IMG/VR virus record: IMGVR_UViG_2974654489_000001
Span: 1-44,851 of that record
DNA: 44,851 nt
DNA from: a virus
Taxonomy: Duplodnaviria; Heunggongvirae; Uroviricota; Caudoviricetes
Strand: one strand, 5' to 3'
The notes under the pieces are model-generated. The model had not been told where the DNA came from. It saw only the letters and a program-made list of their open reading frames with translations, and did no database searches. The translations under genes and the position numbers were made by a program. Position 1 is the stretch's first letter. Every line of letters begins with the position of its first letter. Of the stretch, positions 6,390 to 6,885 are shown piece by piece.

Positions 6390-6776
6390 ATGAATCTTAA
6401 AGCAACTGTCGTGGCGGGGGCATGTTTCATCATCCTGGCATACGCACACGGCATCTACCAGTATCGCAGCGGTTGGAACGAAGGCCGGGAGAATCTCGTT
6501 TCGCAGCAACAGCAGAAAGCACAGGCTGAGTTAGCGAAGAAAACACAACGGCAGCAGCAGGACGAATCAAAGGCCGCCGCCGCTGACAATGAAGGCAAGA
6601 CGAAATCAGAGGTGATTACCCGTGAAGTCGTTAAGTACATTAAAACGCCTGGCCGCAGCGTGTGCACTTTTGACCCTGAGCGCGTGCAGATCAAGTCCCG
6701 CGCCGTCGCCAACGCCAATTCCATCCCCGGATACGACGATGATGCAGCCGCCGTGCAAACTGGCACCGCCAAGTAG
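6390..6776 (+). CDS. Rz: i-spanin (Rz-like)
   Basis: N-terminal TM segment (VVAGACFIILAYA), Q/E/K-rich coiled-coil periplasmic region; strong RBS GAAAGGAGAAACA. Confidence 0.7.
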   Translation: MNLKATVVAGACFIILAYAHGIYQYRSGWNEGRENLVSQQQQKAQAELAKKTQRQQQDESKAAAADNEGKTKSEVITREVVKYIKTPGRSVCTFDPERVQIKSRAVANANSIPGYDDDAAAVQTGTAK

Positions 6777-6885
6777 CGACGCTGACGAGGATTTGGCTGT
6801 CGACGTCCAGAACGCCGAATGCGTACGGCAACTGAGACTGAAAGTGTTCATGTTGCAGGATTACGTGAGGAATATTCTGGAATAG
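6622..6885 (+). CDS. Rz1: o-spanin (Rz1-like lipoprotein), overlapping Rz in another frame
   Basis: Signal peptide with lipobox LLTLSAC followed by proline-rich region SSPAPSPTPIPSP; GTG start inside Rz. Confidence 0.7.
   Translation: MKSLSTLKRLAAACALLTLSACRSSPAPSPTPIPSPDTTMMQPPCKLAPPSSDADEDLAVDVQNAECVRQLRLKVFMLQDYVRNILE

Follow-up and report, generated by a model that had tools for sequence, protein, structure and literature searches.

A predicted Jersey-family spanin pair in the head-gene block of a Guernseyvirinae phage, preceded by a putative leader RNA

The overlapped gene pair and its family

The two overlapping open reading frames at 6390-6885 of the window (the whole stretch of 44,851 nt analysed here) very probably encode the i-spanin and the o-spanin of a two-component spanin of the 'Jersey' family. 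This family of overlapped i-/o-spanins was defined by Kongari et al. 2018 and comprises Jersey, K1G, K1H, K1ind1-3, SETP3, HK578 and others (PMC6139136). An earlier note, made from the letters of this DNA, had proposed an overlapped two-component spanin pair at this position, and the open reading frames, the PHROG profiles and the relatives all bear it out. An overlap of 155 bp is given for phage Jersey, and the o-spanin cysteines at positions 45 and 67 are constant in the family (PMC6139136): the pair in the window matches all three values exactly, and its layout of N-terminal anchor and lipobox is alike as well. We found no difference of substance to the family; the signal peptide is a little different from those of close relatives, reading LLTLSAC where Snoke has STMLASC. 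For the family, helices and two beta strands have been predicted, the o-spanins having an alpha-1 helix and a more conserved alpha-2 helix (PMC6139136). At the DNA level the spanin locus is 96.9% identical to K1ind3, and the records of K1ind3, Golestan and Bas74 already carry both genes annotated as spanins. A tblastn search yielded spanin matches in 663 phage records. The record of Snoke (Center for Phage Technology) contains the same 87-aa o-spanin with the remark "Contains Lipobox motif". The positions of all features are collected in Table 1.

Table 1. Positions, strands and supporting evidence of the features discussed; promoter and terminator calls are consensus matches
Feature	Position	Strand	Evidence and remarks
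Predicted bidirectional terminator after Hoc-like gene	5745-5765		terminators annotated on both strands in Snoke
Sigma-70-like promoter P_A	6137-6165	+	TTGACT, 17 nt, TAAGCT, with TG upstream; consensus match
Putative structured leader RNA core, copy A	6170-6280	+	P1 hairpin 6174-6194; long irregular hairpin 6197-6261; AAGGGCC...UCUAUUG tail
Terminator-like hairpin	6346-6365	+	GC-rich, weak U tract; 24 nt before i-spanin ATG
i-spanin gene	6390-6776	+	ORF, Shine-Dalgarno sequence, hydropathy, phrog_2536
o-spanin Shine-Dalgarno sequence	6609-6614	+	GAGGTG, read from the sequence; within the i-spanin reading frame
o-spanin gene	6622-6885	+	ORF, GTG start, lipobox, phrog_1267
Predicted terminator after major capsid gene	8737-8758	+	Snoke record has a terminator behind its major capsid gene
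Copy B of promoter and leader motif	38057-38201	+	heads plus-strand array 38409-42875
Putative leader, copy B	38090-38201	+	at the head of the array ending in holin and endolysin
Holin	41836-42144	+	phrog_2359 (E=2e-29), hydropathy; 102 aa, three hydrophobic segments
Second holin/antiholin-like membrane protein	42137-42409	+	phrog_2508 (E=1e-33), start codon and Shine-Dalgarno sequence; 90 aa
Lysozyme-type endolysin	42387-42875	+	PF00959 (E=6e-25); 162 aa from GTG

The i-spanin gene starts with ATG behind a Shine-Dalgarno sequence (AGGAG at 6381-6385) and codes for 128 aa. Its single hydrophobic segment comprises residues 3-22 (Kyte-Doolittle 17-residue mean of 1.94), none being found elsewhere in the protein, so that the N-terminal transmembrane segment expected from the earlier note is indeed present. 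The C-terminal part forms a predicted periplasmic domain of ~105 aa with one periplasmic cysteine (C92). By its predicted topology the product is a small inner-membrane protein with a single N-terminal anchor, as is characteristic of i-spanins. A coiled coil, which had also been claimed, could not be confirmed: residues 28-70 form a polar stretch with many Q, K, E and A and only 7% L/I/V/M/F, and they displayed no clear heptad pattern in a crude test. The profile phrog_2536 ('Rz-like spanin') matches the i-spanin over its full length (E=2e-57).

The o-spanin is encoded in the +1 frame relative to the i-spanin: both genes share 155 nt (6622-6776), and the o-spanin gene continues for 109 nt past the i-spanin stop codon. 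Upstream of the lipobox, GTG is the only usable start codon, and the Snoke record has a ribosome-binding site annotated at the position that matches the Shine-Dalgarno sequence of Table 1. The predicted signal sequence is MKSLSTLKRLAAACALLTLSA, cut before CR, with a positively charged n-region, an uncharged h-region and the lipobox LSAC; processing of the 87-aa precursor would leave a mature protein of 66 aa. Cys22 (codon 6685-6687) is followed by Arg, not Asp, at +2. The mature part has a proline-rich linker, with Cys45 and Cys67. Cleavage by signal peptidase II was judged by a rule set (lipobox [ILMFTV][^REKD][GAS]C, positively charged n-region, uncharged h-region, no Asp at +2), and the rule-based lipoprotein scan was positive for the o-spanin product; the out-of-frame gene with a lipobox and a proline-rich stretch is thus as it had been described. 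Profile phrog_1267 (Rz-like spanin) matches residues 9-86 (E=1e-20). Taken together, the pair exhibits further hallmarks of spanins, namely overlapped adjacent genes and periplasmic cysteines available for disulfides in both proteins (C92 in the i-spanin, C45 and C67 in the o-spanin).

The earlier note had called the pair 'Rz/Rz1'. The Pfam families Rz (PF03245) and Rz1 (PF06085) gave no match at E up to 0.1, and the only Pfam match was a weak one to DUF2514 (15 bits versus a cutoff of 26). The NCBIfam model for P2 LysC / Rz1-like proteins, NF038368, reached 15.1 bits (E=0.019), below its cutoff of 27. Homology to the spanins of lambda or P2 was rejected, as neither Pfam nor NCBIfam returned a significant spanin family. 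From these profile searches, 'Rz/Rz1' is a functional label for the pair and not a statement of homology: the term holds as a functional analogy and fails as a family name, the pair belonging to the separate Jersey family. Lambda Rz/Rz1 and P2 LysB/LysC resemble the pair in functional class and predicted topology (an inner-membrane protein of type II paired with a lipoprotein of the outer membrane) as well as in the proline-rich o-spanin and the periplasmic cysteines. In contrast, they share no detectable sequence family with it and both sit in the lysis cassette. Furthermore, lambda Rz1 is fully embedded whereas the o-spanin of the window is overlapped and longer (66 aa mature).

Position in the genome and proposed role in lysis

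A DNA search with 6100-6960 matched 298 phage records, the best matches being the Kagunavirus coliphages 536P11, Bas74, K1ind3 and Golestan, to which the window is ~97% identical. The small terminase gene marks the start of the window, and both window ends are contiguous in relatives. Because of this contiguity, together with the terminase start and the Kagunavirus matches, the window is by its sequence a complete, circularly closed Guernseyvirinae (Kagunavirus) genome of ~44.85 kb. A tRNA search found no tRNAs in the window. The spanins are located in the head-gene block. On the linear window 34,951 nt separate them from the genes for holin and endolysin; measured on the circle, which is valid since the ends are contiguous in relatives, the distance is 8,366 nt. 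The location and the distances given in the earlier note (~35 kb and ~8.4 kb, respectively) were thus accurate. According to hydropathy the endolysin is soluble, carrying neither a SAR nor a transmembrane segment. In canonical lysis cassettes the spanin genes are contiguous with those for holin and endolysin, which is not the case in the window. Such contiguity is not a defining feature of spanins.

The same placement is found in many relatives: in Kagunavirus, Jerseyvirus, Cornellvirus, Pantoea phage AH01 and Dhillonvirus the pair is flanked by MuF/Hoc-like genes on one side and by the scaffold gene on the other. In Snoke the i-spanin, the o-spanin and its lipobox are annotated between the Hoc-like and scaffold genes, and in Dhillonvirus Opt212 there is no intergenic space between the MuF-like gene and the i-spanin gene. 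In sidste, which is linearised at another point, holin, lysozyme, terminase, portal, MuF, Hoc-like protein and spanins follow each other on one strand within ~9 kb. In the announcement of Schulenberg, a related Guernseyvirinae-like coliphage, the genes for holin/antiholin and endolysin are described as lying apart from those for the spanins (PMC6763661). Schulenberg shows no relevant difference from the window locus and carries the same leader (98.5% identity) directly before the annotated i-spanin gene, its record having two leader copies. In other papers the same gene numbers appear without comment. The classical precedent for spanin genes unlinked from holin and endolysin genes is PseT.3/PseT.2 of T4. 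These differ from the pair described here by a separated architecture, another sequence family and an i-spanin without cysteine; moreover, the lysis genes of T4 are all dispersed, whereas holin and endolysin of the window still form a cassette. The earlier note regarded the split of the lysis genes as unusual, which is overstated given that it is fixed across Guernseyvirinae and Dhillonvirus, is in print for Schulenberg and has a precedent in T4. Neither the spanin gene family nor its distance from the remaining lysis genes is new: both have been published and annotated before, and the finding is ordinary; the case confirms this family and genome arrangement.

Nearly all experimental work on spanins concerns lambda Rz/Rz1, to which Kongari et al. 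add T4, and T1 gp11 was tested earlier (PMC6139136); in the literature we found no published experimental test of Jersey-family spanins. Lipidation, complex formation and outer-membrane disruption are carried over by analogy from the lambda/T4 paradigm onto the observed sequence features, conservation and genomic context. By this analogy, the i-spanin would be held in the inner membrane by its N-terminal segment, while the o-spanin, after export and lipidation on Cys22, would be directed to the outer membrane, a destination expected because residue +2 is Arg rather than Asp. The C-terminal periplasmic parts could then bind each other, with disulfides of Cys92, Cys45 and Cys67 stabilising a complex that spans the periplasm and that would be inactive as long as the peptidoglycan mesh holds it. 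Once the holin frees the soluble lysozyme and the wall is degraded, the complexes would disrupt the outer membrane. The holin would set the timing of lysis, and the spanins, which do no harm as long as the wall persists, may build up at any stage. For this reason the spanin genes need not adjoin the holin-endolysin cassette or be co-transcribed with it. As the predicted first genes of a unit with scaffold and major capsid, the spanins would be synthesised alongside the late proteins of highest abundance. The locus may illustrate why the linkage of spanin genes to the lysis cassette can be lost, their products being inert until the wall is degraded and the holin alone setting the time.

We compared the number of ORFs of at least 45 aa that follow the lipobox rule in the window and in simulated genomes. 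The window contains two such ORFs; the simulated genomes contain 0.62 on average and 45% of them have at least one, so the lipobox alone was rejected as statistical evidence. This frequency would fit the view that only the 128-aa membrane protein is real and the 87-aa ORF is a product of chance, and so would the annotation of many GenBank relatives, which show only a 47-aa o-spanin from an internal ATG that lacks the lipoprotein signal. We nevertheless consider a chance ORF hardly credible. We examined eight relatives (Bas74, Snoke, sidste, SETP13, Pantoea phage AH01, Cornellvirus CECAV_044, Dhillonvirus Opt212 and Klebsiella phage Kp4862-1), and the full-length frame with start codon, Shine-Dalgarno sequence and lipobox is kept in all eight, representing at least five lineages, despite the divergence of the signal peptides (LLTLSAC, STMLASC, FLLNGC, FLVGC, LMLSAC, GITGC and MLCSC). 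The cysteines in PPCK and EC.RQ are invariant across the relatives. In AH01 and Cornellvirus CECAV_044 no more than 8 nt are shared by the two genes, an arrangement of the type that Kongari et al. class as 'separated' (PMC6139136), and the o-spanin is therefore not an artefact of out-of-frame reading. Furthermore, the 87-aa form is used both in the Snoke record and by Kongari et al. (PMC6139136). The 47-aa calls, a form that PHROG profile phrog_5672 carries as well, can be attributed to the known bias of gene callers against overlapping genes. On these sequence grounds the o-spanin is non-random through the conjunction of its overlap with the 3′ end of an anchored-protein gene, the retention of the lipobox and the family homology, and the correct product is the 87-aa protein starting from the GTG at 6622. 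As a practical consequence, the truncated entries in GenBank and in phrog_5672 should read 87 aa.

A genuine gene pair with this layout might still serve another purpose than lysis. Envelope-modifying systems for superinfection exclusion (cf. the T5 Llp and Cor lipoproteins) block the receptor or DNA entry, and a function of this kind would explain why the pair is not part of the lysis cassette and lies at a distance from holin and endolysin. The lysis function of the Jersey family rests on analogy, and the pair is no member of Pfam Rz/Rz1, which leaves some room for such a role; we judge it to be very improbable. One argument against it comes from Klebsiella phage Kp4862-1: homologues of both genes (38% identity for the i-spanin, E=1e-22, and 46% for the o-spanin; also overlapped) are immediately preceded there by genes for a Q-like antiterminator, a holin and an endolysin of SAR-like type, a canonical linked lysis cassette as opposed to the unlinked pair of the window. 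In addition, two genes for a membrane-anchored protein and a lipoprotein with conserved periplasmic cysteines are the signature of spanins, and exclusion lipoproteins such as Llp are known as single genes beside receptor-binding genes. Gram-negative phages with a canonical holin and a soluble endolysin normally need a spanin, yet the phage offers no other candidate for one. The genome-wide lipobox scan gave no rival lipoprotein or u-spanin candidate, including beside the endolysin; the other hits were very short ORFs or lay antisense to larger ORFs, and none of them was near the endolysin gene. A unimolecular spanin of the T1 gp11 type was not found either, as no ORF of the genome combines a lipobox with a C-terminal transmembrane segment, and the o-spanin itself has no C-terminal hydrophobic segment. 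Hence we retain the reading of the pair as a spanin.

Predicted transcription unit and control of the spanin genes

Terminator-like sites at 5745-5765, 6346-6365 and 8737-8758, with no plus-strand site of this kind between 6885 and 8737 (from the spanins to the major capsid gene), delimit a predicted transcription unit in the order P_A, leader, hairpin 6346-6365, spanins, scaffold, major capsid and terminator 8737. The terminator at 5745-5765 is predicted to separate the upstream head genes from the spanin unit. The hairpin at 6346-6365, whose stem is kept via compensatory changes in sidste-type leaders, could stop most transcripts short of the spanin genes. P_A is conserved in relatives; its exact pattern occurs in the window only at 6137-6165 and 38057-38085. 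The second site belongs to a duplication of ~145 nt: copies A and B share 87% identity in their first 71 nt, and conservation of the motif extends further. An HTH gene that is transcribed divergently faces copy B, and the array downstream of copy B (38409-42875) ends with holin, holin and endolysin.

The earlier note concluded from the leader that the spanins are regulated separately. Control of the spanins apart from holin and endolysin through a leader element of their own is conceivable, and the location in a different predicted unit with its own promoter and with terminators at 5745-5765 and 8737-8758 speaks in its favour, but we find it rather doubtful. The promoter (TTGACT, 17 nt, TAAGCT) and the leader motif head the array 38409-42875 as well, and IMG/VR contigs of this phage group carry the motif at exactly two positions, corresponding to copies A and B. 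Separate regulation does not follow from an element that recurs, with an 87%-identical promoter and leader motif, at 38057-38201. Because the same elements stand in front of both gene groups, the duplication, if anything, favours control of a common type over separate control. Co-regulation of the spanins with holin and endolysin is likewise uncertain: the stretch from copy B to the holin gene contains a terminator-like site (39491-39512) as well as a promoter-like one (41727-41754), and copy B is absent from some relatives (sidste). A literature search for transcript data on Guernseyvirinae returned none.

The leader RNA

The leader may be the only potentially new item at this locus. Its region (6128-6392, 265 nt) is at least 95% identical in 177 of the 179 matching phage records, among them 65 Salmonella phages; in SETP13 the leader is 98.1% identical to the window and the flanking spanin segments 72-77%. 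A second, diverged leader allele is present in 269 records of mostly Salmonella phages. A pattern scan of IMG/VR gave 56 loci, 54 with the leader motif, while two (L044 and L070) look like chance matches. The leader loci in IMG/VR comprise 35 unique sequences in six sequence families: 23 stand before an i-spanin gene and six before the first gene of a 38409-type array, two are represented by both kinds of copy and four could not be placed. When the pattern was applied to bacterial genomes (596 Gb), nearly all hits were chance matches in GC-rich genomes; one was a true copy (L154).

Ten variants from the six families fold independently into one architecture. A short hairpin is followed by a long irregular one, which has a bulged C, an internal loop and a loop of 4-5 nt at its tip; a single-stranded AAGGGCC...UAUUG tail comes last. 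The terminal stems are wholly different among the families, yet they always pair. In the long-range helix (P2) one pair, formed by positions 6202 and 6256 of the window, covaries (UA 10, CG 4, AU 3, no mismatch), and the partner position had been left free by the search pattern. The inner helices are unalignable across families by MAFFT, and formal pair counting was confined to P1 and P2. An alternative in which the element encodes a leader peptide, the 36-aa ORF at 6185-6295, was rejected since the frame is closed or startless in several variant families. Because this ORF is not conserved, we read the leader as RNA, and the 'hypothetical protein' that GenBank places inside it is probably not a gene.

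Rfam returned no match, neither with a permissive E-value on both leader copies nor at the gathering threshold on the whole window, and we found no description of the RNA in the literature. By description, a parallel in layout is offered by the put RNAs of HK022, two per genome, which are located immediately behind sigma-70 promoters and comprise a pair of bulged stem-loops each (PMC9378689). The window has two copies behind sigma-70-type promoters with two predicted bulged stem-loops, and terminator-like hairpins follow at 6346-6365 and 38271-38287, which recalls the put layout. The put RNAs, which act in cis to let RNA polymerase resist terminators further downstream, measure ~70 nt, as compared with ~95 nt for the leader of the window. 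By this analogy, the leader could in principle be a previously undescribed cis-acting regulatory RNA, e.g. a put-like processive antiterminator, that couples the spanin/scaffold/capsid unit to the holin-endolysin array, an idea that we regard as unlikely. If true, a split lysis system would be co-ordinated at the RNA level and not by gene linkage. The leader RNA could also open a question about late-gene timing in these virulent siphoviruses, which encode no RNA polymerase.

Two minor observations concern the surroundings of the leader. The 12-mer ATGTTGGAATAA occurs at 6112 and 6895 and was considered as a cassette boundary; it was dropped, as its occurrence is not above chance and the spacing to the next TTGAC differs. 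Upstream of the leader, minus-strand inserts vary among relatives, for example a sliding-clamp-like gene is found in Snoke.

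Spanin genes in related phages

Klebsiella phage Kp4862-1 carries spanins of the same family as those of the window, here in a lambda-like arrangement. The family, linked to the other lysis genes in this phage and unlinked in the window, has therefore switched between the two contexts. Upstream of the spanins, Pantoea phage AH01 and Cornellvirus CECAV_044 bear a hairpin-rich region of ∼500 nt that ends in a GC-rich hairpin immediately before the ribosome-binding site. This region differs from the leader of the window, and no alignment to the leader motif was possible.

The o-spanin is called in numerous GenBank records, those of Bas74, sidste and SETP13 among them, as a 47-aa protein from an internal ATG, a form without the lipoprotein signal, and the PHROG family phrog_5672 (47 positions) derives from this shortened protein. 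The conserved frame is the full 87 aa, starting from the GTG at 6622.

Coordinates of the features discussed (L numbers denote loci from the phages named)
Feature	Position	Strand	Remarks
MuF-type head morphogenesis protein	window 3405-5198		PF04233, 597 aa
Small ORF	window 5770-6015	minus	81 aa; Shine-Dalgarno GAGGAGGG; between Hoc-like gene and leader
Leader RNA region	window 6137-6368; 38057-38290		includes the promoter (TTGACT, 17 nt, TAAGCT), immediately upstream of the RNA
Palindrome	window 6161-6177; 38081-38097		AAGCTCCACCTGAGCTT and AAGCTCAGCCTGAGCTT, at promoter copies A and B
36-aa 'hypothetical protein'	window 6185-6295		annotated within leader in relatives
47-aa o-spanin call	window 6742-6885; L001 (Bas74) 4643-4786; L003 (sidste) 2513-2656; L008 (SETP13) 2115-2258
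HTH DNA-binding protein	window 37767-38018	minus	divergent from copy B
HslV-family peptidase-like gene	window 41336-41776		phrog_1040, E=6e-35; immediately upstream of holin
Lysis genes	L007 (Kp4862-1) 220-3147		Q-like antiterminator, holin, SAR-like endolysin, overlapped i- and o-spanin
Hairpin-rich region upstream of spanins	L004 (AH01) 2060-2565; L006 (CECAV_044) 2082-2562

The leader RNA and its promoters

The leader is a conserved, structured RNA of ∼95 nt that is present in two copies in the window. One fold is common to six sequence families of the leader, with one pair that covaries (UA, CG, AU), and an Rfam search with the leader gave no match. Compared with the leader of Salmonella phage SETP13 we found 98% identity, whereas the neighbouring genes share just 72–88%. 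Candidate roles for the leader are those of a put-like antiterminator, an sRNA and an attenuator. Each promoter copy has a palindrome that overlaps its -10 element as well as the probable start of transcription; this palindrome may serve as an operator. The 36-aa ORF annotated within the leader is probably not a gene: its frame is not kept open across leader variants, several of which have no start codon or are frame-shifted.

The minus-strand slot and head gene variation

In the slot that separates the leader from the Hoc-like gene, relatives carry other minus-strand genes, namely a sliding-clamp-like gene (Snoke), RusA (CECAV_044) and endonuclease VII (SETP13); this slot looks like an insertion hot spot. 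The 81-aa ORF that occupies it in the window has no PHROG match. Just upstream of this ORF, a 52-nt stretch (6019-6070) is similar (81% identity) to 15964-16015, which precedes the minus-strand cluster 13561-15727.

The MuF-type protein bears an ADP-ribosyltransferase exoenzyme domain at its C-terminus (PF03496, E=3e-13). In Bas74 the corresponding gene measures only 1044 bp and the C-terminal region with this domain is absent, while the Snoke gene contains an intein.
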